DNA of 64,000 nt from Alphaproteobacteria bacterium. GTDB lineage: Bacteria > Pseudomonadota > Alphaproteobacteria > Caedimonadales > UBA9215. Below the pieces are notes generated by a model. That model searched no databases. It was not told where the DNA came from and saw only the letters and a list, made by a program, of their open reading frames with translations. The stretch covers positions 32,867 through 96,866 of the forward strand of contig JAJSAD010000096.1 of NCBI GenBank assembly GCA_024281375.1, read 5' to 3'. Below are positions 12,632-50,611 of this stretch, one piece after another. The translations under genes and the position numbers were made by a program. The first letter of the stretch is position 1, and the number at the start of each line of letters is the position of its first letter.

Positions 12632-12638
12632 AACTGAA

Positions 12639-12744: not shown

Positions 12745-12858
12745 CATATGTTATTTTAGACAGAGCCTCTATCTTGAGGCTCCTTTTTTAAAAAAAATTG
12801 ACAGTTAATATTTTATTTTGTAATATTTTTAAAAGTTATTATAAAAAAAAATGAACCT

Positions 12859-20958: not shown

Positions 20959-21798
20959 TTATTTTTTCAATCTGATGGTTATCAAGCGAGAAATTTCTTT
21001 TATAAAGAAGGATGGGCTATAAAAGAGAACATAGAAAAAATAAAAATGACGAAGGGGGTTGTAGATATCTCTTGCCCTTAAATAAGCATAAAATTTCGCA
21101 GATTTCTTCCGTGTTTTTACAAAATGAGGGTAGTATTTTTTTTGTATCCCAATGCCCTTAGCAATGATTTCTGCTTCATGATTGTTTGATAAAGTATCTG
21201 AGTGAAAACGATATCGATACAATGCTTTTTCCAAGGGTTGAATAAGGGTCAAAGTGGCGATTCTTAACCAGTACTCGTAGTCCTCACATAAAAAATCATC
21301 TTCAGAGTAGGGACCTACTTCTTGAGCAACTGGTGCTCGGTATAAAAAACAGGCTCCGACGACATTCCTAAGAATGAGATCTTGTGCAGGGCCGGCCTGA
21401 ATTTCCCCCGTTTTTTGTCCTTGTTCGTCAATAAGTTCCATACTTGTATATGTAAGGCCAATAGAAGGATCATTATCCAAAATCTGGAGCATTTCGTCTA
21501 ATGCATGAGGGAGATAAGCATTGTCACAGGATGTCCAAGTCCAGTACTTACCAGAAGCCTGTGTAAAACCTTTGTTTAAAGCGCCGGGTATTTTAAGGTT
21601 TTTCTCATTTCGTATATAAGTAATACGGGTGTCTTGTGATGCATATTTCTGCGCAATAGAGGCGGTATTATCTGAGGAATAATCGTCTACGATAATGAGT
21701 TCAAAGTCTTTGAACGTTTGTCCTAGAACGGACTCAATGGATTCAGCTAAATAGGGTTCACCATTATAGACAGGAAGAACAATTGAGATTTTAGGCAT
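20959..21798 (-). CDS. family-2 glycosyltransferase
   Basis: ISIVLPVYNGEPYLAESIESVLGQTFKDFELIIVDDYSSDNT shows the GT-A fold. The internal ATG at 21798 avoids overlap with the upstream gene. Confidence 0.85.
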   Translation of the reverse strand: MPKISIVLPVYNGEPYLAESIESVLGQTFKDFELIIVDDYSSDNTASIAQKYASQDTRITYIRNEKNLKIPGALNKGFTQASGKYWTWTSCDNAYLPHALDEMLQILDNDPSIGLTYTSMELIDEQGQKTGEIQAGPAQDLILRNVVGACFLYRAPVAQEVGPYSEDDFLCEDYEYWLRIATLTLIQPLEKALYRYRFHSDTLSNNHEAEIIAKGIGIQKKYYPHFVKTRKKSAKFYAYLRARDIYNPLRHFYFFYVLFYSPSFFIKEISRLITIRLKK

Positions 21799-23287
21799 GG
21801 GTGGTTTTTTTTCCAATCCAGGCACAAATGGGCGGGCCATCCGTTGTAATTAACTCTTGTACTTCAACTGTAAGGTTACTTTTTTCCATGAGGCGTGCAA
21901 CATAGTCCGCATCAAACCATTGTTCCCAAGCTTCTAAACGAATATTTTTCTGACGTTTAGAGTCTTTATCAATGATTAGGACAGTCCCCCCGGCTTTGCA
22001 GACTCTAGCAAGTTCTTTAATAGCAGCTTCGATATTTACAGCGTGCTCTAAGACTTCACAGCAGAAAATAATGTTGTAAGTTTCATTTTCTAGGGGAATC
22101 TGACATATATTTCCAACTTTTTTTTGCGCTGATTCTGGAAGATAGTCAAATAGGGCATCAGATATATCCATACCAGTCATCGAGAGGTTTAGTCCGTCGT
22201 TAATAAGTGCATGCATAAAACGCCCTTTACCGCACCCGATATCGAGTAATGTTACATTTTTTGTAGGAATATTTTTTTCTGATCTAACAATATTAGCAAG
22301 GCATTTATAACGACCATCTGAGTTATCAATTGCTTTTAGGAAGCTTTCTGCCCGATTGGTTTCAGCAAACTCCAATTGTAATTTTAGGTGAATAGCATCC
22401 AGTAAATATTTAACGGGCCAACTTATTTCCGACGTTTTAAAATAAGAAACAAAGCAGCCAGATCCGCCTCGAAAACCACCAGAAGCACGTTGTTTTTTTA
22501 TAGCATAATCGAGGCAAAGATTTCCTTCTTCTAACATTCCTAACTTATAAAAACAAACAGCATACTGGAGCATTGCCGTTAGGCAAACCCACCTTACATT
22601 TGGAAAAGCAGGAATGGCTCCACTTCGACGTTGGTATTTTTGTATGGAGCGCAAAGCAGTCAAAGCGCGTTCTTTTTCTCCAAGGTCAATGAGTGCCTCC
22701 ACAACATAGGCATGAAAATGAGTGATGACTTTAAATTCTGTTAAATCACTTTGAGCAAGATAGTAGTTGAGCGCACGCTGAACACCGTCTAGATAATCTT
22801 GTCGGTTATATTTCTCGGCAGCTAGTTTTAAGGGCTCAATAGCATAAAGGTGGATATATTCATTACCAATGGCCGTAATTTTAGACATTGTGGGTGTGTG
22901 AATGCGACCGTCTGAATCAATTTGCGAGAGTAGCCAATCACAACCTTTGAGAAAGGATCCCTCATATTTTTCGCCAAAGGGAATCAACTCATAAAGACCT
23001 TTAAGAATTTGCCCTGTATCAAAAGTATAGATTGTTTCAAGTTCTAAGTCTTGCCAAGCTCCTTCAGGCGTTTGAATAGAAAGGAGCCAATCTCCATAAG
23101 AAAGCGCTCGTTCTTTTTCTCCCCATTTTAAAAGAGTTGGGATATAATAACCGGTTACTTCTGGATAGGGTTTCTGCAGCTCGGACCCATGAGCAATACC
23201 ACCGTCAATCGTATTATCTTTGATCCACGCTCGAGCCTTTTCAAAAGAATCTAAAATGTATGAGGGACTTTGTTTATTGAAAATCAT
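21791..23287 (-). CDS. two-domain protein: N-terminal alpha/alpha-toroid-like region fused to a class I SAM methyltransferase
   Basis: The C-terminus has LLDIGCGKGRF (motif I) and VLEHAVNIEAAIKELARVCKAGGTVLIIDK. The N-terminal ~300 aa (GYYIPTLLKWGE, EGAWQD, DSDGRI) resemble prenyltransferase/terpene-cyclase-type repeats, but only weakly. Confidence 0.55.
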   Translation of the reverse strand: MIFNKQSPSYILDSFEKARAWIKDNTIDGGIAHGSELQKPYPEVTGYYIPTLLKWGEKERALSYGDWLLSIQTPEGAWQDLELETIYTFDTGQILKGLYELIPFGEKYEGSFLKGCDWLLSQIDSDGRIHTPTMSKITAIGNEYIHLYAIEPLKLAAEKYNRQDYLDGVQRALNYYLAQSDLTEFKVITHFHAYVVEALIDLGEKERALTALRSIQKYQRRSGAIPAFPNVRWVCLTAMLQYAVCFYKLGMLEEGNLCLDYAIKKQRASGGFRGGSGCFVSYFKTSEISWPVKYLLDAIHLKLQLEFAETNRAESFLKAIDNSDGRYKCLANIVRSEKNIPTKNVTLLDIGCGKGRFMHALINDGLNLSMTGMDISDALFDYLPESAQKKVGNICQIPLENETYNIIFCCEVLEHAVNIEAAIKELARVCKAGGTVLIIDKDSKRQKNIRLEAWEQWFDADYVARLMEKSNLTVEVQELITTDGPPICAWIGKKTTHA

Positions 23288-23290
23288 TTT

Positions 23291-25147
23291 TTAGGCCTGC
23301 AACTTTCGTTTGATTTTTTCAGAGAGGGGCTTTACTTTTTTTGCGATTAAATGAATTCTGTTTTTAATTCTATTTTTTAGGAACTTTTGGTCATTCTTAT
23401 TTTCTATATATGTATTATGCGGCAGTTGTTTCAATCCATTCATTTTATTATAAAATTCAGGAAAGGTGCTTTTAAAGGAAGGGTCAATAAGGTCAAAAAT
23501 ACTAATGATGGAATGGTAGTCATTCCATTCTAAGGGGGCTTGGTTGTTCGGTTCTCCAAGTAAATACAATGTTGTTAAATCAGAGTCGACATAAGATTCT
23601 TTTTTTATAACCACTTCTCGGGTATCAATCATATACTCATAATCTATAATATAAACTTTGGAGTTTTGTGTAATCAAAATGTTGGATGGATCTAAATCGC
23701 GATGAATAAACCCACTTTCAGAGAAAGCTATTAGTAGACTTTCTAAGGATTTCAATAATTTTATTTTTTTTGTTTGATTAAGGGACCCCCAGATATCTTT
23801 AGATAAATACTCTCCTTCGATAAATTCTGTGATAAGAAACTGATAGCCATGTGCGGATGTAGCATAAGAATGAGGAGCGGGAAAAAGATCAGGGTGTTTC
23901 CCATTGAAAAAAGATAGTAACTCGAATTCTTTTTTGACTTTTTTAGAACCATTGAACAAAAATTTAATAAAAACTTTTTGACCCGTTTTTGTTTTTGCTA
24001 AAAAGAATTTCGCGCCTTTGTCAGCCTTCCATAAATCAACCTTGTAGGCAGTTAAGTCAGATAGTTGCAGGTAAGAAAGGTGGTCTTTTGCAAGATCATA
24101 GTAAATGTCTGTGGATTGACGTTCATAAAAGGAGTTGAAAGATTGGTAATTTTTATCATGTAGGAATTTTTTTGTTTTATCGAGGTAAACATCAAATATT
24201 TTAGGCTGACTATCGCCGTAAATTTCGGTGCTTAGTTCTTCTAGTATGCGATGGTATTTGGCCTTCACTGAAAGTTTAAGAAAGTATAATTGATAGACGA
24301 GAAGGAAAAATTGATCTTTTATAGCAGGGATAAATGTTCCAGATTTTCCTTTTATTTTTGTCTTTAAAATATTTAGGAGCCATTTTGCTGGGATATATTG
24401 GTAGCTATGCAGATGAAAAGGAATAGACTCTTTCTTAATAATAACATTAAACATATAAGTATTTAGAACAGCGTCAAATTCTTTTGTGGCATTTAAGATA
24501 TAGCTGGCTGCATGGAGAGATGACTCATCTACAAGTAGATCAATGTCACTTTCTCGGCCGAGGTCTTTGGGGTGGGTTTTGTAGTCCCTGAGCATCACAT
24601 AGGAAAGTGTTTCATTTAGAATATAAAAAACCTGTTCTCGAGATGCCCAAGGTTTTTCTCCAATAAGTTCTTGCTCTATAACACGGTAGTTGCCCTGAGA
24701 TGTTTTATCGGGATTATAAGTCAGAAGGTAGTCATCAACACTAATCCCCAAAAGCATTGCAAGGTTATGGCGAGATTCCACTGGTGTGACCGTGCTATGG
24801 ATTACAAAAGGATCACCTGCCCATGTTCTGTACCGTTCTTTGCTATTGAGCATATTTATATTGATATGTGAATACCCGCTAGATGTAAGGCATGTTTCAT
24901 ATTTTGGTGATAAATCTTTCACGAGTACAAGTAAAAATGGCGCATTCCCTCGACGTTTTAAGTCCATTCCATTGGCTCGAAAATCTAGGCCATAAAAACG
25001 ACACATGTTCTTATGAAATAAATCAGAAGACCATTTTATTTCAATGGTTTCTAAAAGTTGGAATCTGCTTTTTATATCAGCAAGGATTTTCTCTTCTTCA
25101 TGACGAGCATTTGACCAAATAATAAATAAATGAAACTCAGGGGACAT
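23291..25147 (-). CDS. three-part protein with a C-terminal protein-kinase-like (PKL) fold domain
   Basis: Catalytic-loop-like FIHRDLDPSNILI followed by YIIDYEY. The mid region has SDIDLLVDES (nucleotidyltransferase-like?). The N-terminal ~150 aa are unrecognised. Confidence 0.5.
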   Translation of the reverse strand: MSPEFHLFIIWSNARHEEEKILADIKSRFQLLETIEIKWSSDLFHKNMCRFYGLDFRANGMDLKRRGNAPFLLVLVKDLSPKYETCLTSSGYSHININMLNSKERYRTWAGDPFVIHSTVTPVESRHNLAMLLGISVDDYLLTYNPDKTSQGNYRVIEQELIGEKPWASREQVFYILNETLSYVMLRDYKTHPKDLGRESDIDLLVDESSLHAASYILNATKEFDAVLNTYMFNVIIKKESIPFHLHSYQYIPAKWLLNILKTKIKGKSGTFIPAIKDQFFLLVYQLYFLKLSVKAKYHRILEELSTEIYGDSQPKIFDVYLDKTKKFLHDKNYQSFNSFYERQSTDIYYDLAKDHLSYLQLSDLTAYKVDLWKADKGAKFFLAKTKTGQKVFIKFLFNGSKKVKKEFELLSFFNGKHPDLFPAPHSYATSAHGYQFLITEFIEGEYLSKDIWGSLNQTKKIKLLKSLESLLIAFSESGFIHRDLDPSNILITQNSKVYIIDYEYMIDTREVVIKKESYVDSDLTTLYLLGEPNNQAPLEWNDYHSIISIFDLIDPSFKSTFPEFYNKMNGLKQLPHNTYIENKNDQKFLKNRIKNRIHLIAKKVKPLSEKIKRKLQA

Positions 25148-27435
25148 TATTTAAGATCTCTTTGTGGCATTATTCGATTAGAATACATCGTATCGCCTAT
25201 AATTTGATAATTTATTAAAAATTCTCTATGCAGTTCATCTATATCTTTCTTTATTTCTTTATTATCAATGAGGTTTAGGTGTTTATCTTTTCTAAAATTA
25301 TATATTTCATAAACGTTATTAACATCAACACGTGCAATGTATGGGTCTAATACGAATACCAGATAGCCATCCCAGTTAGGTAAAATCATTCCCCTTTTTT
25401 TTGCTTTTTTAACAGGGGCATGTAAGTTTCTACCAAAAGAAGTATACTCACCACCAAAGTTTAAAATGTTTAATAGCGTTGGCCCGACATCAATTTGAAA
25501 AGCAGGTTGATCTACTTTTTGAGGGGATAGGATACCGGGGGCATGTATTAAAAAGGGGATATGGTAGTGATCGTAAAGCGATAGCTTGCGATCGATGGAG
25601 GTATGGTCAGAAATTAATACAAAAATCGTATTTTCATAGACAGGGTTCTTTTTAACTTTATCAAAAAATTCCCTCAAGGCAAAATCTGCATAACGGGTAC
25701 TATAATAAAACCTTTCTTCGGTTGTGAGTGGATGATCAGGTCTGTGTCCTCTAGGTATTGGGACATGAGGGTGAGAGCTTTCAGTATGGGTGACGATAAA
25801 AAATGGTTTTTCAGCAGAAATCATTTTCTTGTAAAGTTTGTCATAGCCATATTCGTCATGGACATACCAAACACCATGGATTCGTCCATCTGTTTTTTCA
25901 GCACCGGTATCTCCTAGGTTGATATCTGGGTCTAAATCATCGTAACTTAGAAAGTTATCAAACAGAGGTGATATGTTTTCAATTCCCGCAATCATAAAAG
26001 GTAAACTGTAAAAATCGACATTTGTTTTAAATCGATCCTTATTTATAGGAAATAATGATAAAAATAATTTTTGATAGCGTGTAAGGATATTGGCTGTCGA
26101 ATCCCAGGTTGTTGAAAATTCTGACGAGTAGCCACGTTTCTTCAAAATTTTTAAATAACTGGAGCTCAGAGAGTGTGTTATTAAGCCTGTGTTTTTAGCA
26201 CTAACAACTCCCCAAATTGGAAGAGAACTACTAATCGCTGACTCCCCCTCATATGATGCCTCTGAGTTTGCAAAACAATGTTCGCAATATAAACTGTCCT
26301 TTTTGAGTTCCTCAATAAACTTAAGAGGGGTCTCCCTTCCTTTAAATGAGTCGCTTGTAGATTCCTCAAGTGTTTCAAGTACAATAACAACAACATTAGG
26401 CTTTTTAGATGTATCCCCTGCTTCTTTGAAACGAAAAGCAGGAAAGTCTTTAGATATAATTTTTTCATCCGAGGCCAAATTTTGTTGAATATAATTTTCA
26501 ATTTCTGTTTTTGATAAATTTAAATTTGGCCGAACAAAAAATGGAAGAAGGCGCTTCTCTTGACCAAAGCCCTTTATTCTCAGGTATTCAGAAAGAGAAT
26601 TAGATAAAAAATATTGAAGAGGGTTTTTGTTAAAGGAGTCTCTTTCGACTAAATCATTGTATTTTAAAGTGTATTTTCCATTTTCATATAAGTTGTTATT
26701 TTCTTTATAGTTTTGTATCCCAGAAGTTAAATGAAAAGTTATTATTAGAGCCGGTGGTAAAATAAAAATTGCTAAAACATTTTGGAATGTTTCTTTTTTA
26801 TAGGATATGTCTTGAGAGTGGAAAACACGATGATATAAAAAAGGGCTTATTAAGAAAAATATAACTAAGTATGCATAGTCATAAGATATATCTTTCATGT
26901 CTCTCAAATAAAGAAATTCTAAACCAACAGGCTTGTTGATGGCTGGGTACCACCCCCAGAGAAAGGCAATAAATGCAACAAATAATAGCGAAAGGGTTGT
27001 GTAAATTCTTATATCAGAGAGTTTTTTCCCCTTAATATTAAAAAAAGATGAAATAAGAAATGCTGTTTGTATCATTACTAATATTGGGAAGGCAAATCGT
27101 AAGGAGGAAAAATCATTTAATAAAAATGTGAAACTATTAAATGGGACGTTATATATAAGGATGGTGTATATCCGAAAACACATCGAAAACGTTAAATACG
27201 TTAATAAAAAGAAAATCATTCCTTTTAGATGTATATTATTACCCGTAGTCGGCCTATCTTTTCGGTCCCTGATAAAGTTTGCGATCATAATGATTACGTT
27301 GAAAGCTAATATATACACGAGTAGATTCATGCTTTGAGTTTTTATCACAGAGAAAGATAAATATACAGCCGTAAGAATTACAGCTATATAGGCTACTGTT
27401 TTTGAAAATTTATTTTGTAGAAATTTTATAAACAT
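25147..27435 (-). CDS. polytopic membrane protein with C-terminal LtaS/sulfatase-type (alkaline-phosphatase superfamily) transferase domain
   Basis: About 10 hydrophobic segments, then PNVVVIVLETLEEST, HTESSHPHVPIP and FVLISDHTS. The start is uncertain (ATG 27435, ATG 27483 or TTG 27498). Confidence 0.65.
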   Translation of the reverse strand: MFIKFLQNKFSKTVAYIAVILTAVYLSFSVIKTQSMNLLVYILAFNVIIMIANFIRDRKDRPTTGNNIHLKGMIFFLLTYLTFSMCFRIYTILIYNVPFNSFTFLLNDFSSLRFAFPILVMIQTAFLISSFFNIKGKKLSDIRIYTTLSLLFVAFIAFLWGWYPAINKPVGLEFLYLRDMKDISYDYAYLVIFFLISPFLYHRVFHSQDISYKKETFQNVLAIFILPPALIITFHLTSGIQNYKENNNLYENGKYTLKYNDLVERDSFNKNPLQYFLSNSLSEYLRIKGFGQEKRLLPFFVRPNLNLSKTEIENYIQQNLASDEKIISKDFPAFRFKEAGDTSKKPNVVVIVLETLEESTSDSFKGRETPLKFIEELKKDSLYCEHCFANSEASYEGESAISSSLPIWGVVSAKNTGLITHSLSSSYLKILKKRGYSSEFSTTWDSTANILTRYQKLFLSLFPINKDRFKTNVDFYSLPFMIAGIENISPLFDNFLSYDDLDPDINLGDTGAEKTDGRIHGVWYVHDEYGYDKLYKKMISAEKPFFIVTHTESSHPHVPIPRGHRPDHPLTTEERFYYSTRYADFALREFFDKVKKNPVYENTIFVLISDHTSIDRKLSLYDHYHIPFLIHAPGILSPQKVDQPAFQIDVGPTLLNILNFGGEYTSFGRNLHAPVKKAKKRGMILPNWDGYLVFVLDPYIARVDVNNVYEIYNFRKDKHLNLIDNKEIKKDIDELHREFLINYQIIGDTMYSNRIMPQRDLK

Positions 27436-28765
27436 TTGGAAAAATTCTTTTGATTTTAATTTTAATTTTAAGAGGGTCAACATCCTCAAAAAGGGCAAGC
27501 TTTTTGGATAAGTCTTTTTTTGTAAAAGGAGTCAATGTTTCAGCTGTGGCTTGATCTACATTATAGTGAAGAGGTAAAAAACGTCGCCCCAGCAGTTTTA
27601 GTTTTTGGAATAAGGTTCGAGAATCTGTAAGTTTATATGACCCTTTGTTTTATAATAATGGCTTGGCGTCCTTAACAATAAAATCAACAAACTCTTTGGT
27701 GCTGGTGCCAATATTATGGAAATAATCTTTTAGTTTTTTGTGAGCTTGTTGGTCTATCTTAGACTGTGTTTTGCTATCCCATTTTTTATTCTTTAAAAGG
27801 TAGTCAATCATTTCTTTGGCTTCTTCCAAGGTTTGAGGAACCTCTCCAAATGCTAGAGCCCATTTGTGACTGCTATGGCTATTTCCCTTTTGAAGCGAAA
27901 GAACTGGAATACTGGTTAGGTAACCTTGCATAGCAGTGGTGCAATCTTTATGTAATATAATTTTTGCACCTGACATTGCTTGGTTTATATCCCCCTTTTT
28001 TGATATGGTAACATTGGGGTAATGTTTAAATATTTCATCGTATTTTTCTTGAATTTCTACAGGGTGAGGTCTAATAAGAAATTGTTCATTTGGGTAACTT
28101 ATTATGAGTTCTTCTAAAATACCTTTGAAATCAATAAAGTGTGTTTTTTCTTCCTGATAACTATCTTTAAAGAGTTTCAAAGTGGTCGGGCTGATAAGGG
28201 AACAAGCCTTCAATTGTTCCTTTAGGGAATACCCCATAAAGCAGCCAAAGTTAGTATTAACTAAGATATATGACTGCGGGAGTGTTTTAATCTTAAGGGC
28301 CTGATAAAATGATTTATATCGTGCCGTTGAAAGATCAAAAGCAGGCGTTCCCATTATTATATATTTATTTTCAAGCCCTGAATTAGGATTGCGTGAAATA
28401 AGATCTACTTTTTGATTGCTACCCCATAAAAAAATTTTGCGCATACAGTGTAATGATTTTATAGCTGGTTCATGGGTTATTGCATAGACAGGGTTAGTGG
28501 CACCCTCGTCTGAAAGGTCATATAGGTAGATCCCTTTTTGCATTAGATGTTTATAATATGCCGGGTCTGGGTTGACACCTTTTTCTAAAAAGACTCCTCT
28601 ATAATTTTTATATTTTAATTCATCACGGATATAAGGTGGATTTCCTAAAATAACATCAAAACCAGCCTTGCAGAAATGCCTTGCTAAATTAAGTTTATAA
28701 TCAAGCTCACGTTTTGGAGACTCAATGGGAAGGAAGAGGGTAGGTTTTTCTAAACTTAAAGCCAT
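27410..28765 (-). pseudogene. surface-carbohydrate-biosynthesis-type protein; 371-aa ORF followed, after an in-frame TAA (27650-27652), by 79 further open codons
   Basis: The same frame stays open from 27649 to the TAA at 27410-27412 (NKGSYKLTDSRTLFQKLKLLGRRFLPLHYNVDQATAETLTPF...). This fills the only ~150-bp gap in an otherwise abutting operon. The family call is from memory of similar proteins in nonulosonic-acid loci. Confidence 0.45.
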
Positions 28766-28789
28766 TATAGATAATTAGTTAACTCAGTA

Positions 28790-29344: not shown

Positions 29345-29352
29345 AATACAGC

Positions 29353-34848: not shown

Positions 34849-34850
34849 GC

Positions 34851-35924: not shown

Positions 35925-35936
35925 ATCATTTTCTAC

Positions 35937-36611: not shown

Positions 36612-36650
36612 ATTGTTCTCATTAAAAGTTGTGTGTGAGGCATTTTTATT

Positions 36651-37334
36651 CTACTTTTTTACTCTAAAGATAAGTGTTGCGGTTGCGATGTCATTTTTGA
36701 AAAGAGGGTCAATATCTTGCTGAAAGTAAATGAAATCAATATGACCGTCAAAAGCTTCTTTGATACTATCAAGAGAATTAAATCTTTTTTTATTGACGGT
36801 GCCATAACTTTCAGCAACATCTAAATCTGGAGTATTATCATAGGAGGCTGTAACTGCGACGGTCCCATTGTTCTTAGAGACTCGAACTATTTCTTGAGCG
36901 GCTTTCTTAGGGTTGTCACTATAGACGATTACCCAACCTGCCATCACAATGTCACGAGAGCTAGAATCAAAAGGCATATCATGCATATCTCCTACTTGGA
37001 TATGTTTTGAATATGATAAAATATCCAGACCCTTAATATTTTTAAGCTTAAATCCATAAGCCCACAAGTTAAAAATTTCAGCCTCAGTTCTAGGCCCAAT
37101 AGAGAGAACCGTTAATTTGTTTTGAGTGCGAAGAATTTTTTCAATGCTAACAAGGGGTCTAATGAGCTGGTGTGTTCTCTCCCCTCCAGTCTCTTTTAAA
37201 CCGAGTAAATTTTGACGCAATGTTCGATTCGAAATATCTACTATATTATCAAGGCCATCTAAAACCTTTAGATTTCGTTTTAGGAAAAAGTACCTTATAT
37301 AACAAAAAATATTTCTTAATAGATCGATTTGCAT
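36651..37334 (-). CDS. class I SAM-dependent methyltransferase (weak)
   Basis: VLSIGPRTEAE (motif I-like), DMHDMPFDSSSRDIVMAGWVIVY and AAQEIVRVSKNNGTVAV. Confidence 0.5.
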   Translation of the reverse strand: MQIDLLRNIFCYIRYFFLKRNLKVLDGLDNIVDISNRTLRQNLLGLKETGGERTHQLIRPLVSIEKILRTQNKLTVLSIGPRTEAEIFNLWAYGFKLKNIKGLDILSYSKHIQVGDMHDMPFDSSSRDIVMAGWVIVYSDNPKKAAQEIVRVSKNNGTVAVTASYDNTPDLDVAESYGTVNKKRFNSLDSIKEAFDGHIDFIYFQQDIDPLFKNDIATATLIFRVKK

Positions 37335-37439
37335 GATTTGCTTTGGAGCCGTTGTAACAAGGCGAATTAATTTATTTTTTTTAGCATTTGTCTTTCTTTC
37401 TATGGGTCTATATATAGGTTCTTTCTCGCTTAAAGAGGC

Positions 37440-38303
37440 CTAGTATCTTTTATTTTCTTCTTCGATTGCACGAGAAATATCATTCTTTGTTTCTTGTGAT
37501 GAAATATCCAACTTTATAGAAGAGGATTGAAATTCAAAAATTAATATATCTCTTTGACAATTCTTTTCTGGAATGCCCGCCATATGAAGACAAGTGGCTG
37601 TGTCACAAATAACGGCAGAACCCATTTTCCCGATGAAAGTTTTTTTCTTTTCACTCTCATTAATCAAATTCTCAGCATTGCCATAGTCATCTCTTTCTTT
37701 GTAACCTTTTTTTAACAATGTTCTGGAAAAATTTTTATCAAAAAATGAAAGGGGACCATCTTTTATTGTAATATCGGATAGGGCAACGAAGAGTTTTAAA
37801 GTATCTACTGGATGACGATCATAGTGCAGCTTGTAAGCATATACTTCGCGTGAAGTCTCAGGGTGGGTAATATGCTTGGTGCGATATGCGGAAACATGAG
37901 AAATTTTAAAGTGTGCGCCATAATATTGGTATATTTTTTCTAGAACATCTGGGGTTAATATTTCTAATACACTTGGCACCTCTTTCAATATATTTTTTAT
38001 CATGAAAAAAGACTTTGGATCTCCTTCTTTTCCTTTGTAAAGGTTATCCTTATTTTCAAATATTATTTTTTCATATTTTTCTTTGATTTCTTGTAGTGCC
38101 TTTTTATTTGAAATCTCAAGAAAGTGGTAACCTAGTGGAAAATGTCTTTTGTTATCGTTTGAATATTTTTCATTAGCTTTCCAACGGTCAAGGCCTAATT
38201 TATTGAGGTGAAAACCCACTCTGTTTTTATATAGTATTTCACCCAAAAAAATATCAAATTTGAATTTATTTCTAAAACAAAGATCTTTAAAATTATTTAA
38301 CAT
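37440..38303 (-). CDS. hypothetical protein, possibly PhyH-like Fe(II)/2-oxoglutarate oxygenase
   Basis: Spacing of HYDRH ... KDGPLSFF ... CLHMAG resembles an HxD...H facial triad. This is a weak call. Confidence 0.3.
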   Translation of the reverse strand: MLNNFKDLCFRNKFKFDIFLGEILYKNRVGFHLNKLGLDRWKANEKYSNDNKRHFPLGYHFLEISNKKALQEIKEKYEKIIFENKDNLYKGKEGDPKSFFMIKNILKEVPSVLEILTPDVLEKIYQYYGAHFKISHVSAYRTKHITHPETSREVYAYKLHYDRHPVDTLKLFVALSDITIKDGPLSFFDKNFSRTLLKKGYKERDDYGNAENLINESEKKKTFIGKMGSAVICDTATCLHMAGIPEKNCQRDILIFEFQSSSIKLDISSQETKNDISRAIEEENKRY

Positions 38304-38340
38304 TTATTAATATTCCTTCTGGTTTAATGAAATAAAAAAA

Positions 38341-39420
38341 CTAGGCAATTTTAGTGCCTTTTTTAAAGTTATTTTGAGAAATAGATCCTAACATTTTCCA
38401 TAATTGCATAGGACTTATGCCATCTCCGGCACGCTGAGTTGTCAAATTATCTAGACTATATAGATCACCTTCTTTAATGTCTTGACGTGCTATAATAGTC
38501 TTACGCACAAGACGTACAGTTTTCTCTTCTGCTCGTGTGCGGAATTTAATAGGAGAGCCTAAAGCTTCTTCTGTTTGGCGGATGGATGTGATCATTTTTT
38601 TTAATTCTTCAGGTGAAAGGGAAGCTTTATGATCTGGACCAGGAAGATTTTTATCTATAGTGAAGTGCTTTTCAATAATGCGGGCTCCACGGGCAACAGC
38701 AGCAATAGAAACAACCTCTCCTTGTGTGTGATCTGAGTAACCGACACGAACATTAAAGGCTTGTGCAAGGGTATCCATGGCGCGTAGGTTGACATGTTTG
38801 AAGGCAGCAGGATAGTCGCTTGTGCAGTGAAGAACAGATACTTTTTCTGAAATGATATCTTGTGCGTCTTGGTTGGCCCAGTTTTGTTGAATTGTTTCAT
38901 TGGTTGGGATGGCGTCGGGGTTCAGGTATCCAAATGCTAGAACCATTAAAGCTTGCTCTACCTCGCCGAGGGTTGCCATACCTGTTGATAAAATAACTTT
39001 TGAGCCTGTTTTTGAGACGTCAAATAGAAGGGGAGCATTGGTGATTTCACCAGAAGGTATTTTGAAAAAATCCATTTCCAAGGAAGATAGAAAAGGAACG
39101 TCATTATGGTCAAAAACACTGGACATAAAGCCGATATTTTTTTCCTTACAACGGGTCAAAAGAGGGGCATAAAAATCTAAGGGGAGCTCTAAACGTTTCA
39201 ACATAGCGTGTTGAGACTCAGCCGACCCACAATTGTTTTTTTGATAATCAGCCTTATCAACGTTGCTTGACGCAAGCTTGTCCGCTGAAAATGTTTGAAA
39301 TTTTACAACATTAGCCCCAGCTTCGGCGGCAATATCAATGAGCTCTAAGCCTAAGTCTAGAGATCCATTATGATTCACGCCAGCTTCAGCAATAATAAGA
39401 GTGTGATCTTTAACAGGCAT
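38341..39420 (-). CDS. neuB: N-acetylneuraminate/legionaminic acid synthase (NeuB/LegI family)
   Basis: IIAEAGVNHNGSLDLGLELIDIAAEAGANVVKFQTF and a C-terminal SAF-type domain. 359 aa. Confidence 0.9.
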   Translation of the reverse strand: MPVKDHTLIIAEAGVNHNGSLDLGLELIDIAAEAGANVVKFQTFSADKLASSNVDKADYQKNNCGSAESQHAMLKRLELPLDFYAPLLTRCKEKNIGFMSSVFDHNDVPFLSSLEMDFFKIPSGEITNAPLLFDVSKTGSKVILSTGMATLGEVEQALMVLAFGYLNPDAIPTNETIQQNWANQDAQDIISEKVSVLHCTSDYPAAFKHVNLRAMDTLAQAFNVRVGYSDHTQGEVVSIAAVARGARIIEKHFTIDKNLPGPDHKASLSPEELKKMITSIRQTEEALGSPIKFRTRAEEKTVRLVRKTIIARQDIKEGDLYSLDNLTTQRAGDGISPMQLWKMLGSISQNNFKKGTKIA

Positions 39421-40561
39421 ATTTCAACTCCACGAATTTCTTTTTGAGGGGAAGTTTCTGTTTGAAAATAGTCTCTAGGGTCTGTGCAATTTTTGTTGAT
39501 GCATTTCCGCTACCATAGGGGCAAGTAATATCAGATCGGTCAAAATTGAAGGCCACCTCTAGAGCATGCTCAATAGAAGTATTATCTGTGCCGCAGTTAA
39601 TAACACTATTCCCCTGAGGGCGCCCTTCTTGGCGGTCTCCAATATTTATGGAAGGAATTTTAAAATAAGGTGCTTCCATTAAAGCGCTGGAGGAATTTCC
39701 CATCACCACATCTACCTTGTTTAGCAAACTAAAGTATTTATGCGTCCCCAAGGAATCAAAAATCCAAGTGTTTTTTTCGGAGCTAACAAAATCATCCAGT
39801 AAATGGTTGAAATCTTGATTGCCACTATCTACATTGGGCCGTGTTATAAAGATATTTGTTTCTTTAAGAGAAGATAAAACATCTAAAGAATTGCGGAGGC
39901 CCTGTGTACCTAAGTCTTCTTCGAAAGTGACGGGGTGAAATGTAAATAGTATGTTTTTCTTATTAAAATTAATGCCCAGTGTCGACTCTAATTCGTTAGA
40001 ACTCAATAGGTTGAATTCTTTTAGGTTGTCTAAGGCTGTGTGGCCTGTGTTGAAAACAGTACTTGAGGATTCACCAAGTTGTCTAACGCGGTCATATGAC
40101 TCTTTATTTGTCACAAAATGAATGGTTGAAAGCTTTGTTATGGCATGGCGAATTGATTCATCAATAGCGCCAAAGGTTAAATCACCACCACACATATGGG
40201 CAATAGGGATACCTAAAAGATAAGCAGGTGTTACAATCCCCATTAATTCAAACCGATCTCCTAAAATGAGGAGGAGGTCAGGCCTGCTTTCATTAAAGAA
40301 TTTTGAAAATTTTTCAGTGGCAGTAGCAATTGATAGGGCATGTGAAAGTTTTGAATCATCGTCATGGAAAATTTCAATGACTTTAGCAATGGAGACTTTG
40401 TCAGTCTCTATTTCTGATATTGATTGGTGGGTACTGTTTATATGGGAACCTGTTACGACTAAATTAAGCTCGAAGTATTTTGAGGCTTCAACCTTTCGAA
40501 TAACAGGCCTTAGTAAGCCATAATCAGCTCGTGATGTTGTAACAATACAGATTTTTTTCAT
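39410..40561 (-). CDS. neuC: hydrolysing UDP/GDP-N-acetylhexosamine 2-epimerase (NeuC/LegG family)
   Basis: MKKICIVTTSRADYGLLRPVI and HMCGGD. 383 aa. Confidence 0.9.
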   Translation of the reverse strand: MKKICIVTTSRADYGLLRPVIRKVEASKYFELNLVVTGSHINSTHQSISEIETDKVSIAKVIEIFHDDDSKLSHALSIATATEKFSKFFNESRPDLLLILGDRFELMGIVTPAYLLGIPIAHMCGGDLTFGAIDESIRHAITKLSTIHFVTNKESYDRVRQLGESSSTVFNTGHTALDNLKEFNLLSSNELESTLGINFNKKNILFTFHPVTFEEDLGTQGLRNSLDVLSSLKETNIFITRPNVDSGNQDFNHLLDDFVSSEKNTWIFDSLGTHKYFSLLNKVDVVMGNSSSALMEAPYFKIPSINIGDRQEGRPQGNSVINCGTDNTSIEHALEVAFNFDRSDITCPYGSGNASTKIAQTLETIFKQKLPLKKKFVELKYAC

Positions 40562-41730
40562 GTATGTGTGACCTCAAAAAAATCAAGGAGGGCAGTCCTG
40601 ATACGCATCATCTCATCATCACTGAGCCCTGTAGAGCTTGGTAGGATAATGACTCTTTCATAGAGAGAATCAATATAGGTTTGGGCCGTTTGTAAAGCTT
40701 TTTCATAAGGGGGGTTTTTATGAAGTGGTTTCCAGAAATGGCGTGCTTGTATGTTGTTTTTTTCTAGGTACTGTATTAATTTGTTGACTTGGTCTGCATT
40801 GGGCAGGACAAGGCCAGAAAGCCAGCAATTTTTTTCAGATTGAGGAGGAACGGGAAAAGTATCAACATTGCTTAGCCGCTTTACAAGCTGACCATAGAAA
40901 GTTGCGATCTTCTTTTTCTTATCAACGAAATCAGATAGCTTTTCAAGTTGTGCAAGGCCGACGGCTGCTTCAAGATTGGTGATTCTGTAATTATAGGCAA
41001 CTTTATCGTGTGTATAATCGGTTCCTAAACGAGCGGTTGAGCTCAAGTGGCGAATATTTTGAGCAAGTTTTTGATCATTAGTTAGAACGCAACCACCACC
41101 ACCTGAAGTGATAATCTTGTTACCATTAAAAGATAAAATTGAAGCATCGACTGGAAGTTGTCCAATCTCCTGCTCACCCACCTTAGATCCAAGAGCCCCA
41201 GCGGCGTCTAATAGAATAGGCAAGTTGTAGGAATCTGCAATTTTTCTGAGGTTTTTAAGGCAATAAGGAATGCCTAAGGCGAACACGGGTAATATTGCTG
41301 CAATTCTTTTTCCTAAAATTTTGTGAATCAAAGAGCCATTTGAACAGGTGGTTTCGGCCTCTAAAGTCTTTTTTAATAAATTTTCATCTAACCCCCATAT
41401 TTCCGGGGAAACATCAAACAACCATGGCTCGGCGCCGCAATAACTAATAGCATTAGCCGTTGCAATAAAGGTAAAAGACGGTGTGATAACAATATCACCG
41501 GGTGACACCCCCAAGGCTCTTAATGTGACATGTAAAGCAGATGTGCCACTGCAAGTAGAAACAGCATGGGAAGCTTGTGTAGCTTTAGAGATCAGCTCTT
41601 CAAAGCGTGCCACAAAAGGTCCGATAGACGATACAAAGTTAGTTTGAATGCATTCCTCCAGGTACTTTGATTCATTTCCCTGAAGGAAAGGAACGCTAAG
41701 GGGAATTGTATTTTCTCTATTAGCAGACAT
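40558..41730 (-). CDS. DegT/DnrJ/EryC1-type PLP sugar aminotransferase (LegC/PglE-like)
   Basis: PLSVPFLQGNESKYLEECI, SGTSALHV and SFNGNKIITSGGGG (PLP Lys). The ATG at 41730 is preferred over 41781. Confidence 0.85.
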   Translation of the reverse strand: MSANRENTIPLSVPFLQGNESKYLEECIQTNFVSSIGPFVARFEELISKATQASHAVSTCSGTSALHVTLRALGVSPGDIVITPSFTFIATANAISYCGAEPWLFDVSPEIWGLDENLLKKTLEAETTCSNGSLIHKILGKRIAAILPVFALGIPYCLKNLRKIADSYNLPILLDAAGALGSKVGEQEIGQLPVDASILSFNGNKIITSGGGGCVLTNDQKLAQNIRHLSSTARLGTDYTHDKVAYNYRITNLEAAVGLAQLEKLSDFVDKKKKIATFYGQLVKRLSNVDTFPVPPQSEKNCWLSGLVLPNADQVNKLIQYLEKNNIQARHFWKPLHKNPPYEKALQTAQTYIDSLYERVIILPSSTGLSDDEMMRIRTALLDFFEVTHT

Positions 41731-42718
41731 AGGAATCAATAGAATATTTTTCCAAGTTTTGAGGGTCTGTAAACCACTCAATTGTTTTCTTTAGGCCATT
41801 TTTAAATCCTTCTGTGCCTGCAAATTCTGCTTGCCAATTCAAAAGTTTTCTTGCTTTGTTCGGGTCGCAAAATAGACGTTCAACCTCACTTTTTTCGGGG
41901 CGAATGCGTTGGTTTTCTTGGAGAATATCAATATCAACACTCATGATCTCAGAAATCAATTTCACTGTATCACCAATGGAAATTTCAAAGCCACTGCCCA
42001 GGTTAATTACTTCCCCTATGGATTCTGGAGACTCTAGGATTTTCAAAATCCCCCTAGTTGTATCCTTAACAAAATTGAAGTCCCTTGTGGGGGTGAGAGA
42101 GCCTAATTTAATTGAACGCTCTCCCTTAGATATTTGGCTAATAATTGTTGGAATGACGGCACGATTAGATTGCCGTGGCCCATAGGTATTAAAAGGTCTA
42201 GCAATAGAAATAGGTAAGTCAAAAGATCTATGGTAAGAGAGGGCTAATTGATCTGCAGCAATTTTCGTAGCAGCATAAGGCGATTGCGCATTTAAGGGGT
42301 GCTGTTCATCTATAGGAACATATTGTGCTGTGCCATAAACTTCGCTGGTGGAGGTGTGTATAATTTTCTCTGTTCCTAAAATACGAGCATTTTCCAGGAG
42401 GTTGAGAGTGCCCTTTATGTTTGTATCGACATAGGATTCTGGCGCTGAATAAGAGTATGGGATTGCTATTAAAGCGGCTAAGTTAATTACAGCATCACAC
42501 CCACGCATTGCCTCTATTAGCGCGCTTCTGTCACGAATATCTCCGTTAATAACTTCAATATTTTTCAAGACATCTGATCTTATAGAGTCTAACCACCCTC
42601 TGTAGCCAAAAGAGTTATAGAGAAACATTGCACGGACATCGTACCCTTCATTGCACAGTAACTCACAGAGGTGTGATCCAATAAAACCCTCGGAGCCAGT
42701 TATCAATATTTTTTTCAT
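41720..42718 (-). CDS. NAD-dependent nucleotide-sugar 4,6-dehydratase (LegB-like, extended SDR)
   Basis: KILITGSEGFIGSHL, SPYAATK catalytic YxxxK, STSEVYG. Confidence 0.85.
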   Translation of the reverse strand: MKKILITGSEGFIGSHLCELLCNEGYDVRAMFLYNSFGYRGWLDSIRSDVLKNIEVINGDIRDRSALIEAMRGCDAVINLAALIAIPYSYSAPESYVDTNIKGTLNLLENARILGTEKIIHTSTSEVYGTAQYVPIDEQHPLNAQSPYAATKIAADQLALSYHRSFDLPISIARPFNTYGPRQSNRAVIPTIISQISKGERSIKLGSLTPTRDFNFVKDTTRGILKILESPESIGEVINLGSGFEISIGDTVKLISEIMSVDIDILQENQRIRPEKSEVERLFCDPNKARKLLNWQAEFAGTEGFKNGLKKTIEWFTDPQNLEKYSIDSYVC

Positions 42719-44466
42719 ATCTTACTCACTTTGGTATTTTTATCACCAATACTTTCTAAACACCCATCTTTCAGTTCAATAATTTTATTGCACCTTGAAA
42801 GGGTGCTGAGGCGGTGGGCGATCATGATGACGGTGTAGTCTTTTGAAATTTCATTGATGGTCTTCATAAGTCTTGATTCTGTTTCTGTATCAAGCGCCGA
42901 TGTTGCCTCATCAAAGATCAGGACTTCTGGTTGACGATAGAGGGCTCTGGCAATGGCGATGCGTTGACGTTCTCCACCAGAGAGGCGTACTCCACGTTCC
43001 CCGACCAGGGTTTTAGTTCCGTCATCAAGGCTTGAAATAAGCTTGTCTAGTTGGGCTGCGTTGATGGCTTTGGTAAGACGCTCTTGATCAATGGTGTCTT
43101 CGCCAAAAGCAATGTTGGCTTCGATAGTATCGTCAATGAGATAAATAGATTGGGGAACATACCCAATCTTTTGATGCCACTGTTTCGAGGCAACAGTAAA
43201 TTTATGATCGATTAAAATTTCACCTTGAGTTGGTTTTAGCAATCCCAATATCAAGTCCACGAGGGTTGACTTACCCGATCCTGTTTCGCCAACAATACCC
43301 ACGCAGTCACCTTTTTGAACTTCAAAGGAAATGCCTTTCAAAGCTGTTTGGCTTTCTTGAGAGTAAGTAAAGGAAACTGATTTTAAAAGAAGGCTTTGTT
43401 TGAATGAAAAATTCGGAACGTCTAAGATTTCTTTTCCTTGTGTCTGTGTGAAAAAATCATTGTGAATACGATTAATAAAGGGGATAACAGATTTGAGAAT
43501 ACTCAGCTGGCTGATAATGCGATTTAAACCAGGCATCACTCGAAAGCCTAAGTATAAATACCCCCCCATAACTCCCATCATTTCTTGGGGTTGATTATGT
43601 TGTAAGCTCATATAGGCAATGGCAAAGACAAAAATTCCAACAAATAAAACCTCAATTACCATACGGGGTAAACTATTAACTGTTTTATGGATGGCTTGAA
43701 CCTTCCCATTGGCTTGCGCATATGTATAGTATGAATTAATAAATGGTTCCTGTTTGCCGAATAGAATGATTTCTTTAAAGCCATGAAAGAATTGCATCAA
43801 TTTTTCTATTCCAAGCACCTGTGACTTTTGTAATTTTTCTCCCCACTGATAAAATGCGGGTAAAAGAAACTTATAAATTATAAGGGCAAAAATTAATGAG
43901 ATAGCAAAAAGGTATCCTGCAAGAAAGGGGGACATATAAACGATCATTCCAATAAGAAGAAAAAAGACCATGGATTCAGAAAGAATTATTGCAAGCGATA
44001 AAACCCCCCCTGTAAACATTTGATCTGTTTCTGCTCCGGTAATTGAAATGCTGTGGGAAGAATTACGCGTCAGTTGTAAGGCGTAATCCATCTGAGTATA
44101 TTTATGGAGAAGCCTTTTTTTAAATTGATAATTCATACGTTGTACTGTGAAATTCTGGAAGAGGACTTCTGCTGCGGCAAAAATATTTTTAACGAGATAG
44201 ATGACACCAACGCTAATGGCGATATAAAAGATAATGCGCCCCGAAGATACATCCCCCTCAACTCCAAGGTACTTGAGGTACTTCAGCGAGCTTTGAGGGT
44301 CTGTCATAGAGCTCGCGAAAACAACGATTACCGAGGCTGTGATAACTTCTAAAACAGAAGCCACAACGGCAAAGCCCATGATACTTGCCCACTCCCACTT
44401 TTCCTGCCTGGAAAGGAGGGATCGGATCTTTTGAACAGCTGAAAAGATGGAGGGTGTTTTAGACAT
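42715..44466 (-). CDS. ABC exporter, fused permease/ATPase (MsbA-like)
   Basis: Six-helix N-terminal half, then GETGSGKST, LSGGERQRIAIARA and LIFDEATSALD. First gene of the glycan operon. Confidence 0.9.
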   Translation of the reverse strand: MSKTPSIFSAVQKIRSLLSRQEKWEWASIMGFAVVASVLEVITASVIVVFASSMTDPQSSLKYLKYLGVEGDVSSGRIIFYIAISVGVIYLVKNIFAAAEVLFQNFTVQRMNYQFKKRLLHKYTQMDYALQLTRNSSHSISITGAETDQMFTGGVLSLAIILSESMVFFLLIGMIVYMSPFLAGYLFAISLIFALIIYKFLLPAFYQWGEKLQKSQVLGIEKLMQFFHGFKEIILFGKQEPFINSYYTYAQANGKVQAIHKTVNSLPRMVIEVLFVGIFVFAIAYMSLQHNQPQEMMGVMGGYLYLGFRVMPGLNRIISQLSILKSVIPFINRIHNDFFTQTQGKEILDVPNFSFKQSLLLKSVSFTYSQESQTALKGISFEVQKGDCVGIVGETGSGKSTLVDLILGLLKPTQGEILIDHKFTVASKQWHQKIGYVPQSIYLIDDTIEANIAFGEDTIDQERLTKAINAAQLDKLISSLDDGTKTLVGERGVRLSGGERQRIAIARALYRQPEVLIFDEATSALDTETESRLMKTINEISKDYTVIMIAHRLSTLSRCNKIIELKDGCLESIGDKNTKVSKI

Positions 44467-46495: not shown

Positions 46496-46496
46496 T

Positions 46497-50596: not shown

Positions 50597-50611
50597 GATC
50601 AAATCCACCAT

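Follow-up and report, generated by a model that had tools for sequence, protein, structure and literature searches.

A legionaminic-acid-type glycan operon with a candidate N-formyltransferase in the LegH position and an in-frame stop codon in its PtmE-like gene

The 64-kb stretch of contig JAJSAD010000096.1 analyzed here (referred to as the window), from an alphaproteobacterium of the UBA9215 lineage, carries at positions 20959 to 44466 a run of genes that raises two connected questions about legionaminic acid (Leg) biosynthesis. How is the 4-amino group of the sugar precursor acylated in an operon that has no gene for a hexapeptide LegH-type acetyltransferase, and does the pathway still run when its PtmE-like nucleotidyltransferase gene is interrupted by an in-frame TGA? 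The locus is a 21-gene operon for making, decorating, and exporting a Leg-type (sialic-acid-like) surface sugar, a kind of locus that is already known, and the combination of its accessory genes is uncommon. The reading that we hold to be probable is of a Leg core in which a short formyltransferase, FT224, acts as the N-acylating enzyme, surrounded by layers of tailoring and of assembly and export, with the PtmE gene inactivated by a nonsense codon.

Nonulosonic acids occur on flagella, lipopolysaccharides, capsules, and S-layers, where they determine how the cell is recognized by the immune system, how phages adsorb to it, and what charge its surface has. They owe most of their diversity to their N-acyl groups. 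The present locus adds one more combination and leaves the understanding of Leg biosynthesis unchanged.

The legionaminic acid core and the pathway it suggests

The open reading frame (ORF) listing of this region held 21 co-directional ORFs, all on the minus strand, and no plus-strand ORF of more than 123 amino acids (aa) that competes with them. Twelve of the 20 gene junctions overlap, by 1 to 103 nt, and the remaining eight are gaps of 2 to 151 nt, among them one of 105 nt at 37335 to 37439 and one of 151 nt at 27499 to 27649, with four of the eight falling between the NeuB and PtmE genes, so that the original prediction of about 21 minus-strand genes with mostly overlapping or abutting ends was borne out. 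Scans of the region for consensus promoters and terminators gave site counts no higher than in shuffled sequence, and gene arrangement is therefore the sole basis for treating the genes as one continuous operon. Positions 38343 to 38359, at the NeuB stop codon and just ahead of the 37-nt gap before a low-G+C cassette, are occupied by a weak hairpin (5 bp, 3 of them G-C pairs) with a T-run; terminator-like sites are no more frequent across the region than chance predicts.

Base composition differs between the operon (32 to 41% G+C) and its flanks (40 to 47%) and also varies within the operon. The low modules are the genes for U287 (31%), MT227 (35%), and FT224 (36%), together with those for a GNAT acetyltransferase, a TIGR04396 protein, an LtaS-like protein, and a kinase-like protein (33 to 35%), and the higher ones are the LegB-to-NeuB genes and the block encoding a CMP synthetase, a short-chain dehydrogenase (SDR), and an aminotransferase (38 to 43%). 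This mosaic suggests that modules of the operon were acquired separately.

We assigned protein families by Pfam and NCBIfam profile searches, with bit scores quoted against the cut-off of the model and with the 64-kb window as the part of the genome covered. All of the families named in the original prediction were recovered, with the Leg models scoring far above the pseudaminic acid (Pse) models; what its account left undescribed was the distal third of the operon, which concerns glycan assembly and export rather than sugar tailoring. All of the operon genes described in this and the next three sections lie on the minus strand. LegB, an NAD-dependent 4,6-dehydratase of nucleoside diphosphate (NDP)-GlcNAc (41720 to 42718), scored 492 bits with TIGR04180 (cut-off, 475) and 63 bits with PseB. 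LegC, a pyridoxal phosphate-dependent aminotransferase (40558 to 41781), scored 409 bits with TIGR04181, just below the cut-off of 420, with PseC next best at 229 bits; its gene overlaps both legB and neuC, and its true start probably lies downstream of the listed TTG. The hydrolyzing 2-epimerase NeuC/LegG (39410 to 40561) and the nonulosonic acid synthase NeuB/LegI (38341 to 39420) passed TIGR03568 (401 bits; cut-off, 236) and TIGR03569 (444 bits; cut-off, 400), respectively. The LegF/NeuA-like CMP-nonulosonate synthetase (34150 to 34848) matched CTP_transf_3 (E value, 2e-20), had PseF as its best NCBIfam model (120 bits; cut-off, 206), and is assigned at the family level only; it is 68% identical to its counterpart in metagenome locus L086. 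A PtmA-like SDR (33357 to 34160) matched adh_short_C2 and stayed under the cut-offs of both PRK09186 (202 bits) and FlagModPtmA (144 bits; cut-off, 350).

The CMP-Leg pathway of Campylobacter jejuni has as its named parts LegB, LegC, LegH, LegG, LegI, and LegF, the PtmE, PtmA, and PtmF proteins, and PtmG and PtmH for tailoring. With this pathway the window shares LegB, a probable LegC, NeuC/LegG, NeuB/LegI, a CMP synthetase, a PtmE-type enzyme, a PtmA-like SDR, and an acetamidino-forming amidotransferase, and its small methyltransferase could parallel PtmH. Unlike C. jejuni, the window has neither LegH nor PtmF: profile scans found no GFO_IDH_MocA match among the operon ORFs, and a class III aminotransferase stands in that neighborhood instead. 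The amidotransferase of the window also has its own HisH/HisF pair, the operon further contains a formyltransferase, a predicted 2-oxoglutarate (2OG) oxygenase, and a GNAT, its PtmE is cut short, and no maf or flagellin genes lie near it.

Read as one pathway, these genes would work as follows. PtmE would make an NDP-hexosamine, in a core of the Campylobacter GDP-sugar type, which LegB would dehydrate at C4/C6 and LegC would aminate at C4. The 4-amino group would then be N-acylated, most likely by FT224, giving a 7-N-formyl sugar; NeuC/LegG would strip the nucleotide and epimerize C2, NeuB/LegI would condense the product with phosphoenolpyruvate, and the CMP synthetase would activate it. A WbuX-type amidotransferase with ammonia-supplying HisH/HisF would turn the 5-N-acetyl group into an acetamidino group, and the cassette of a PhyH-like oxygenase and a methyltransferase, the GNAT, and the pair of SDR and class III aminotransferase would add or prepare further substituents. 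Assembly and export would fall to a TIGR04396/TagB-like transferase, a family 2 glycosyltransferase (GT2), an LtaS-type transferase, a kinase-like protein, a methyltransferase fusion, and a PglK-like ATP-binding cassette (ABC) flippase, with a MarR-type regulator encoded upstream. The likeliest product would be close to 7-N-formyl, 5-N-acetimidoyl legionaminic acid (Leg5Am7Fo) with extra decoration. We infer in what order the steps occur, on which substrate each tailoring enzyme acts, and what structure the product has; gene content, family membership, catalytic motifs, the fold of the formyltransferase (in a predicted model), and synteny are established here.

The in-frame stop codon in the PtmE-like gene

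The PtmE-like gene (34851 to 35924) encodes a sugar-1-phosphate nucleotidyltransferase with CBS and NTP_transferase domains and is interrupted at codon 311 of 357 by a TGA at 34992 to 34994. The stop that had raised doubt about the function of the locus is thus real, and translation past it remains clearly PtmE. When we aligned the sequence with nine full-length homologues (347 to 359 aa), the column of the TGA held Leu, Phe, or Ile, with Leu in most. A single-base change to TGA from a putative ancestral TTA would fit this predominance of Leu. The TGA removes 46 conserved C-terminal residues, including the invariant P325, E328, Y329, W330, D332, and G334, and the public protein record for PtmE is a 310-aa fragment.

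Two further in-frame stops interrupt genes of the window, a TAG at 18142 to 18144 in an SF1 helicase gene and a TAA at 50594 to 50596 in a TraA relaxase gene. After the PtmE TGA we found no fold resembling a selenocysteine insertion sequence, and a 68-nt segment starting just ahead of the TGA was no more stably folded than shuffled sequence (z = +1.0). Recoding of the stop codon was rejected, since the three stops are all different (TGA, TAG, and TAA), the TGA aligns with Leu and not with Trp, Gly, or selenocysteine, and RNA structure is absent downstream. The same three observations argue for a genuine nonsense codon that reflects ordinary gene decay.

The alternative is that the TGA is a sequencing or assembly error, or that it is tolerated through read-through or through a supply of NDP-sugar from another enzyme, and that the locus is fully functional. 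We regard this as unlikely but deserving of some weight. TGA is the leakiest of the stop codons, it lies one base from a Leu codon, and the other 20 genes of the operon are intact and of normal length. These points have to be set against the truncated product in the public record, the six invariant residues in the lost segment, the lack of a recoding signal near the TGA, and the presence in the same 64 kb of two in-frame stops of other types and of two adjoining tra ORFs in different frames. We therefore prefer the reading of a nonsense-inactivated PtmE gene, in which the locus has probably been inactivated or crippled, and recently so because the other 20 genes look intact, in a region that is gathering nonsense and frameshift lesions. 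With other lesions and what look like remnants of a conjugative element nearby, the PtmE nonsense codon would offer a snapshot of a surface glycan pathway at the start of its decay.

FT224 and the absence of LegH

None of the 21 ORFs of the operon matched Hexapep or PglD_N, and a LegH profile built from 16 proteins of related loci gave only E values above 0.6 against a six-frame translation of the whole window. No LegH-type acetyltransferase had been visible in the original prediction either, which proposed that the formyltransferase or the GNAT might take its place. Of these two, it is the formyltransferase that we found to be favored, by its position in the LegH slot, its likeness to 4-N-formyltransferases, and the scarcity of LegH in the Leg clusters that contain its relatives.

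FT224 (35937 to 36611) is a short sugar N-formyltransferase of 224 aa with a Formyl_trans_N match and is our candidate for the replacement of LegH. Its catalytic triad Asn-His-Asp corresponds to N74, H76, and D111, which are invariant in 36 family members and align with the N-x-H and D motifs of glycinamide ribonucleotide transformylase. The family comprises proteins of about 220 aa, with 1,389 matches that are mostly unannotated or labeled "methionyl-tRNA formyltransferase." Searched against the PDB, the family profile gave as its best match WbkC, the GDP-perosamine N-formyltransferase of Brucella (E value, 1e-17), followed by ArnA, WlaRD, and PseJ (E value, 1e-10). An AlphaFold2 (AF2) model of FT224 reached a mean confidence (pLDDT) of 94.7 and shows a Rossmann-like core with a small C-terminal subdomain, as in sugar N-formyltransferases. 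Foldseek searches with this model returned sugar N-formyltransferases at all of ranks 1 to 19, mostly 4-N enzymes (WbkC, VioF, WbtJ, and Rv3404c), with TM scores of 0.72 to 0.78 and E values down to 8e-18; the highest-ranked of these are 4-N enzymes throughout (TM scores, 0.72 to 0.77). In the predicted model, then, FT224 looks like a sugar 4-N-formyltransferase. WbkC acts on a GDP-linked 4-amino-4,6-dideoxyhexose, and the substrates of sugar 4-N-formyltransferases such as WbkC and VioF are NDP-4-amino-4,6-dideoxyhexoses, the chemical class to which the product of LegC also belongs.

For comparison, we annotated 80 metagenome loci encoding FT224 relatives with the proteins of the window. The formyltransferase genes of these loci almost always lie within a Leg cluster, in many cases beside LegC, and the commonest order is LegB-LegC-formyltransferase-NeuB/NeuC-PtmE. 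Twenty-four of the 80 loci were informative (at least 8 kb and at least three core genes). A LegH-like gene was absent from 18 of these, full-length in 4, and short in 2, so that strict mutual exclusion of formyltransferase and LegH was rejected; half of the 18 loci without LegH (9 of 18) also carry WbuX/HisF/HisH. About 10 of the metagenome Leg clusters have, immediately after the formyltransferase gene and slightly overlapping it, a conserved ORF of about 75 to 85 aa that matches part of the LegH/PglD profile at about 91 to 103 bits (L070, at 6116 to 6346, and L025, L036, L043, L044, L049, L050, L054, L059, and L082). This ORF, which is not present in the window, could encode a PglD N-terminal domain on its own or be what is left of a LegH that has been replaced.

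The position of FT224 points in the same direction. In L002, found through a PtmE that is 47% identical to that of the window, and in L086, found through U287 and with several genes 55 to 68% identical, LegH sits between NeuB and PtmE. Exactly there the window has the cassette U287-MT227-FT224, with 31 to 36% G+C against about 40% in its neighbors and bounded by a run of intergenic gaps not seen elsewhere in the core. A cassette at the LegH slot that combines low G+C with bounding gaps has the pattern of an insertion or replacement, which is what U287-MT227-FT224 looks like. On this sequence evidence, FT224 most likely performs the 4-N-acylation step in place of LegH, at what becomes N-7 of the nonulosonate.

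Known formylated nonulosonates provide precedent for such a sugar. PseJ (PDB 6CI2), whose product is Pse5Ac7Fo (PMC11040635), resembles FT224 in its size of about 200 to 220 aa, in its location within a nonulosonic acid cluster, and in replacing the N-acetyltransferase step. It differs in belonging to another pathway, with a UDP-linked L-altro sugar, and FT224 is nearer in both sequence and fold to WbkC, VioF, and WbtJ, which act on GDP- or dTDP-sugars. Halorubrum sp. PV6 has a leg cluster with a predicted formyltransferase embedded in it and makes 5-N-formyl-Leg (PMC6137143), and formylated CMP-nonulosonates occur alongside a Leg-like cluster, also with an embedded formyltransferase, in "Candidatus Kuenenia stuttgartiensis" (bioRxiv 10.64898/2026.04.20.719630). 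The Halorubrum cluster has a LegH/NeuD gene and the Kuenenia cluster a deacetylase. The window has neither, and profile scans of its ORFs revealed no deacetylase that could expose N-5 to formylation, so that N-7 is the more probable site of the formyl group. An N-formyl derivative, as the original prediction implied, is thus the likely product on our reading too, but to call it unusual was an overstatement, N-formyl derivatives of both Leg and Pse having precedent.

Several points weigh against our reading of the locus. A truncated PtmE may leave the pathway without any product. The operon lacks the PtmF (Gfo/Idh/MocA), PgmL, and GlmU genes of the Campylobacter route; genes for an initiating transferase, a polymerase, a ligase or oligosaccharyltransferase, and flagellin are not in the 64-kb window; and the acceptor is not encoded here. 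Activity of the FT224 family on an NDP-4-amino-4,6-dideoxyhexose with N10-formyl-tetrahydrofolate is predicted. The six informative loci with both a formyltransferase and a LegH-like gene (four full-length and two short) allow that FT224 acts on another amine, and a PseH-type GNAT is present that could acetylate the 4-amino sugar instead. Finally, legH of C. jejuni lies near the pseudaminic acid locus, outside the leg cluster (bioRxiv 10.64898/2026.04.20.719630), so that a gene missing from the 64-kb window, itself part of a 99-kb contig, could still be present elsewhere in the genome.

The last two points each underlie an alternative that we consider improbable. According to the first, the GNAT (28790 to 29455) is the true substitute for LegH, in the manner of PseH or SpsD, the product is Leg5Am7Ac as in Legionella and Campylobacter, and the formyltransferase acts elsewhere. 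The protein is of the Acetyltransf_3/RimL type (E value, 2e-22), its true start probably lies downstream of the listed TTG, and its weak match to PseH (E value, 1.5e-7) amounts to 31.6 bits, far under the cut-off of 93. Besides the clusters that hold both a formyltransferase and LegH, this alternative can draw on spsD, a putative acetyltransferase gene that is needed for Leg synthesis in Bacillus subtilis (PMC7439481). Yet a GNAT homologue was found in none of the 80 loci, in which the formyltransferase is the constant element; FT224 occupies the LegH slot, whereas the GNAT gene is distal, beside transferase genes; and without a deacetylase among the window ORFs, no other amine would be freed for formylation.

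According to the second alternative, which we rate no higher than the first, a LegH/PglD protein is encoded elsewhere in the genome, like Cj1298 in C. jejuni, and FT224 and the GNAT are merely extra tailoring enzymes. The C. jejuni precedent and the view of 64 kb of the genome both leave room for this arrangement. It is opposed by the 18 of 24 independent formyltransferase-containing Leg loci that have no LegH within up to 20 kb, and by the closest syntenic loci, in which LegH is found where the cassette sits, suggesting replacement rather than relocation. The use of FT224 in place of LegH remains our preferred explanation.

We tentatively extend this explanation, with somewhat less than even confidence, to the whole family of about 220 aa, which could be an unrecognized "LegJ," a GDP-sugar 4-N-formyltransferase replacing LegH in a widespread subclass of Leg clusters, accompanied here by amidination and by an undescribed cassette of PhyH-like oxygenase and methyltransferase, with a product not yet seen chemically. 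If so, many environmental bacteria would make 7-N-formyl Leg, and, if the family provides the 4-N-acylating enzyme, the "Leg5Ac7Ac" currently predicted from genomes would be incorrect in many organisms. The most useful by-product of the analysis is the large unannotated formyltransferase family itself, located at the LegH position in many Leg clusters from the environment.

That NeuB and NeuC serve a plain sialic acid (Neu5Ac) or Pse pathway is very improbable, for although the NCBIfam models that they pass are named for N-acetylneuraminate synthesis, LegB and LegC lie directly upstream with overlapping stops and starts, PseB, PseC, and PseI (264 bits for the synthase; cut-off, 340) score far below their cut-offs, the epimerase is of the NeuC and not the PseG type, a PtmE-type nucleotidyltransferase is present, and the synthase is closest among solved structures to the Leg synthase SpsE of B. 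subtilis (188 bits, against 164 for PseI and 144 for Neisseria meningitidis NeuB). SpsE is needed for Leg synthesis in B. subtilis (PMC7439481). A plain sialic acid assignment by profile search, the outcome that would have spoken against the original prediction, was thus not what we found.

Accessory genes and genomic surroundings

The first gene of the cassette encodes U287 (37440 to 38303), a predicted PhyH-like Fe(II)/2OG oxygenase of 287 aa that has no Pfam match of its own, gave nothing significant in a single-sequence PDB search, and carries an HxD...H...R motif. A word-indexed search found 3 close homologues, and a full HMMER profile search found 1,169 representatives. Across 44 aligned sequences (27% mean column identity), H160, D162, H240, and R251 are invariant, and from the sequence the first three are assigned as the iron triad and R251 as the 2OG-binding Arg of Fe(II)/2OG oxygenases, in support of the possible 2OG oxygenase of the original prediction. 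One distant family member matches PhyH (E value, 3e-4; 21.4 bits against a cut-off of 22), and the family profile gave only subthreshold PDB matches, to DhiD, the CurA halogenase, and a leucine hydroxylase. An AF2 model from four sequences had a pLDDT of 41 and was unusable for the fold.

MT227 (36651 to 37334; 227 aa) resembles S-adenosylmethionine (SAM)-dependent methyltransferases (Methyltransf_11; E value, 5e-9). In L086 and in L087 (Logan), the gene right after the class III aminotransferase is a U287 homologue, and in L087 a homologue 61% identical to MT227 comes directly after U287; the predicted oxygenase and the methyltransferase-like protein thus form a conserved pair tied to the PtmE-CMP synthetase-SDR-aminotransferase block. 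This block recurs in L005 (Dissulfurispira thermophila), L011, L027, L057, and L086. Its class III aminotransferase (32056 to 33363; Aminotran_3) is of the GSA-aminomutase-like kind and scored 395 bits with PRK06209 (cut-off, 486). Among the related loci, L086 (Logan) shares MT498-GT2-LegB-LegC-NeuC-NeuB-...-PtmE-CMP synthetase-SDR-class III aminotransferase-U287 at 32 to 69% protein identity, but it keeps LegH and has no formyltransferase. L087 shares aminotransferase-U287-MT227, and L074, L076, L014, and L078 (JGI) share the formyltransferase and WbuX/HisF/HisH and have no LegH. No locus that we found unites all of the modules, and the GNAT, the LtaS-like gene, and the kinase fusion occur in none of these six.

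The glycosyl amidation set is complete at the family level, as the PP-loop amidotransferase and HisH/HisF-like pair of the original prediction had suggested. Its genes are adjacent and overlapping and encode a WbuX/PseA-type N-acetyl sugar amidotransferase (30716 to 32056; TIGR03573, 362 bits against a cut-off of 203), a HisF/WbuZ-like cyclase subunit (29967 to 30752; His_biosynth, with hisF at 278 and WbuZ at 263 bits, both just below their cut-offs), and a HisH/WbuY-like glutaminase subunit (29353 to 29973; TIGR01855, 183 bits against a cut-off of 105). WbuX with HisH/HisF is the standard gene set for glycosyl amidation and should yield an acetamidino group.

Toward the end of the operon lie genes for transfer and assembly. 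The leading candidate for the nonulosonic acid transferase is the TIGR04396 "surface carbohydrate biosynthesis protein" (27650 to 28765; 371 aa; 196 bits against a cut-off of 125). It carries DEG (residue 86) and HP (residue 234), which correspond to the D/E-D/E-G and HP motifs described for the TagB-like Pse/Leg transferases of Tannerella forsythia (Tanf_01245 and TFUB4_00887; PMC5420450). It also matches the BFO_1060 glycosyltransferase domain, with a score of 78 bits that is below the cut-off of 200, and its activity is a prediction only. SpsB, an analogous candidate in B. subtilis, is dispensable for Leg transfer (PMC7439481).

Next comes a membrane protein of 783 aa (25147 to 27498), possibly a transferase of the phosphoglycerol or phosphoethanolamine type, with a sulfatase/LtaS-type domain of the alkaline phosphatase superfamily (Sulfatase E value, 8e-23, residues 367 to 679) and weak matches to phosphoglycerol transferase I and LtaS. 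It is followed by a two-domain protein of 618 aa (23291 to 25147), C-terminally protein kinase-like, with Pkinase, RIO1, and APH matches at residues 384 to 511, a match to a Kdo-kinase model (E value, 1e-5), and HRDLDPSN and IIDYE motifs. The LtaS-type protein and the kinase-like domain together suggest phospho-substituents on the glycan. The N-terminal domain of the kinase protein (residues 1 to 309) is 33% identical to a stand-alone 408-aa protein encoded between LegB-like and LegC-like genes on a TARA Oceans contig (L079, 2157 to 3380) and appears to be an unassigned domain that recurs in Leg clusters.

The 498-aa protein MT498 (21791 to 23287) combines an unassigned N-terminal domain of about 320 aa, without significant Pfam or PDB matches, with a C-terminal SAM methyltransferase domain (Methyltransf_11/23/25, residues 330 to 474), and its C terminus is 67% identical to an L086 protein. 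The last gene of the operon encodes a GT2 (20959 to 21840; Glycos_transf_2 E value, 3e-33) that is 58% identical to the legB-adjacent GT2 of L086, where the MT498-GT2 pair likewise occurs, immediately upstream of legB. Neither Pfam nor PDB searches gave an assignment for the N termini of the 618-aa and 498-aa proteins, for the membrane N terminus of the LtaS-like protein, or for the homologues in L079 and L032. With these proteins, the formyltransferase, two methyltransferase-like proteins, GNAT, and class III aminotransferase listed in the original prediction are all accounted for by Pfam and NCBIfam.

At the opposite, upstream end, the operon begins with a fused TMD-NBD ABC exporter (42715 to 44466; ABC_tran and ABC_membrane) that resembles PglK and MsbA and is a putative flippase for lipid-linked glycans; its match to PglK is full-length at 315 bits (cut-off, 1000) and suggests transmembrane flipping of a lipid-linked oligosaccharide. 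Just upstream of it, also on the minus strand and beyond the stretch delimited by the original prediction, is the gene for a MarR-family regulator of the exopolysaccharide-associated (EPS) type (44729 to 45316; HTH_24; TIGR04176 MarR_EPS, 66.7 bits against a cut-off of 88). It probably belongs to the locus, and a gene with the same Pfam families stands upstream of the Dissulfurispira Leg cluster (L005).

To the left of the operon lie gpmI, a DEAD-box helicase gene, tRNA-Leu, tig, clpP, and uvrA. Tig and ClpP are 28% and 66% identical, respectively, to their Escherichia coli counterparts, and the window proteins that were tested are all singletons at 90% identity; there is a hint, no stronger than that, of a bacterium living in association with protists. 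On the plus strand at 11996 to 13662, clpP is followed by a 267-aa ORF without an NCBIfam match and not by clpX as in the E. coli order tig-clpP-clpX. Directly downstream of the operon, at 16966 to 20640 on the minus strand, the 1,224-codon SF1 helicase-like gene (AAA_11/AAA_12) is split by its TAG into ORFs of 832 and 345 aa and is, by its sequence, a second nonsense pseudogene.

On the other side, between the operon regulator and a group II intron, a TacA-like antitoxin gene (92 aa) and a GNAT toxin-like gene (164 aa) at 46001 to 46775 (minus strand) are likely a TacAT toxin-antitoxin pair. The intron (47141 to 49257, plus strand) is complete, with Rfam matches to domains D1 to D4 at 47141 to 47289 and to the 3' domain at 49181 to 49257, and carries an intact 493-aa reverse transcriptase/maturase ORF (47692 to 49173). 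It lies just upstream of the gene for a Ti-type TraA relaxase (49529 to 52909, plus strand), which is split by its in-frame TAA and whose match to the TraA profile begins only at profile position 31 to 32. Farther along, on the minus strand at 59189 to 61293, a partial TraD ORF (59189 to 60391) and a TraG-like fragment (60388 to 61293) share 4 nt near 60388 and are read in different frames. Together with TrbC and TraI-like genes, these tra remnants look like a decaying F-type/Ti-type conjugative element. The nearest plasmid matches of TraD are from Megaira, Rickettsia felis, Protochlamydia, Paracaedimonas, and Legionella (37 to 41% identity), and that of TraA is from Aquicella (33%), which suggests that the remnants are related to conjugative elements of protist symbionts.

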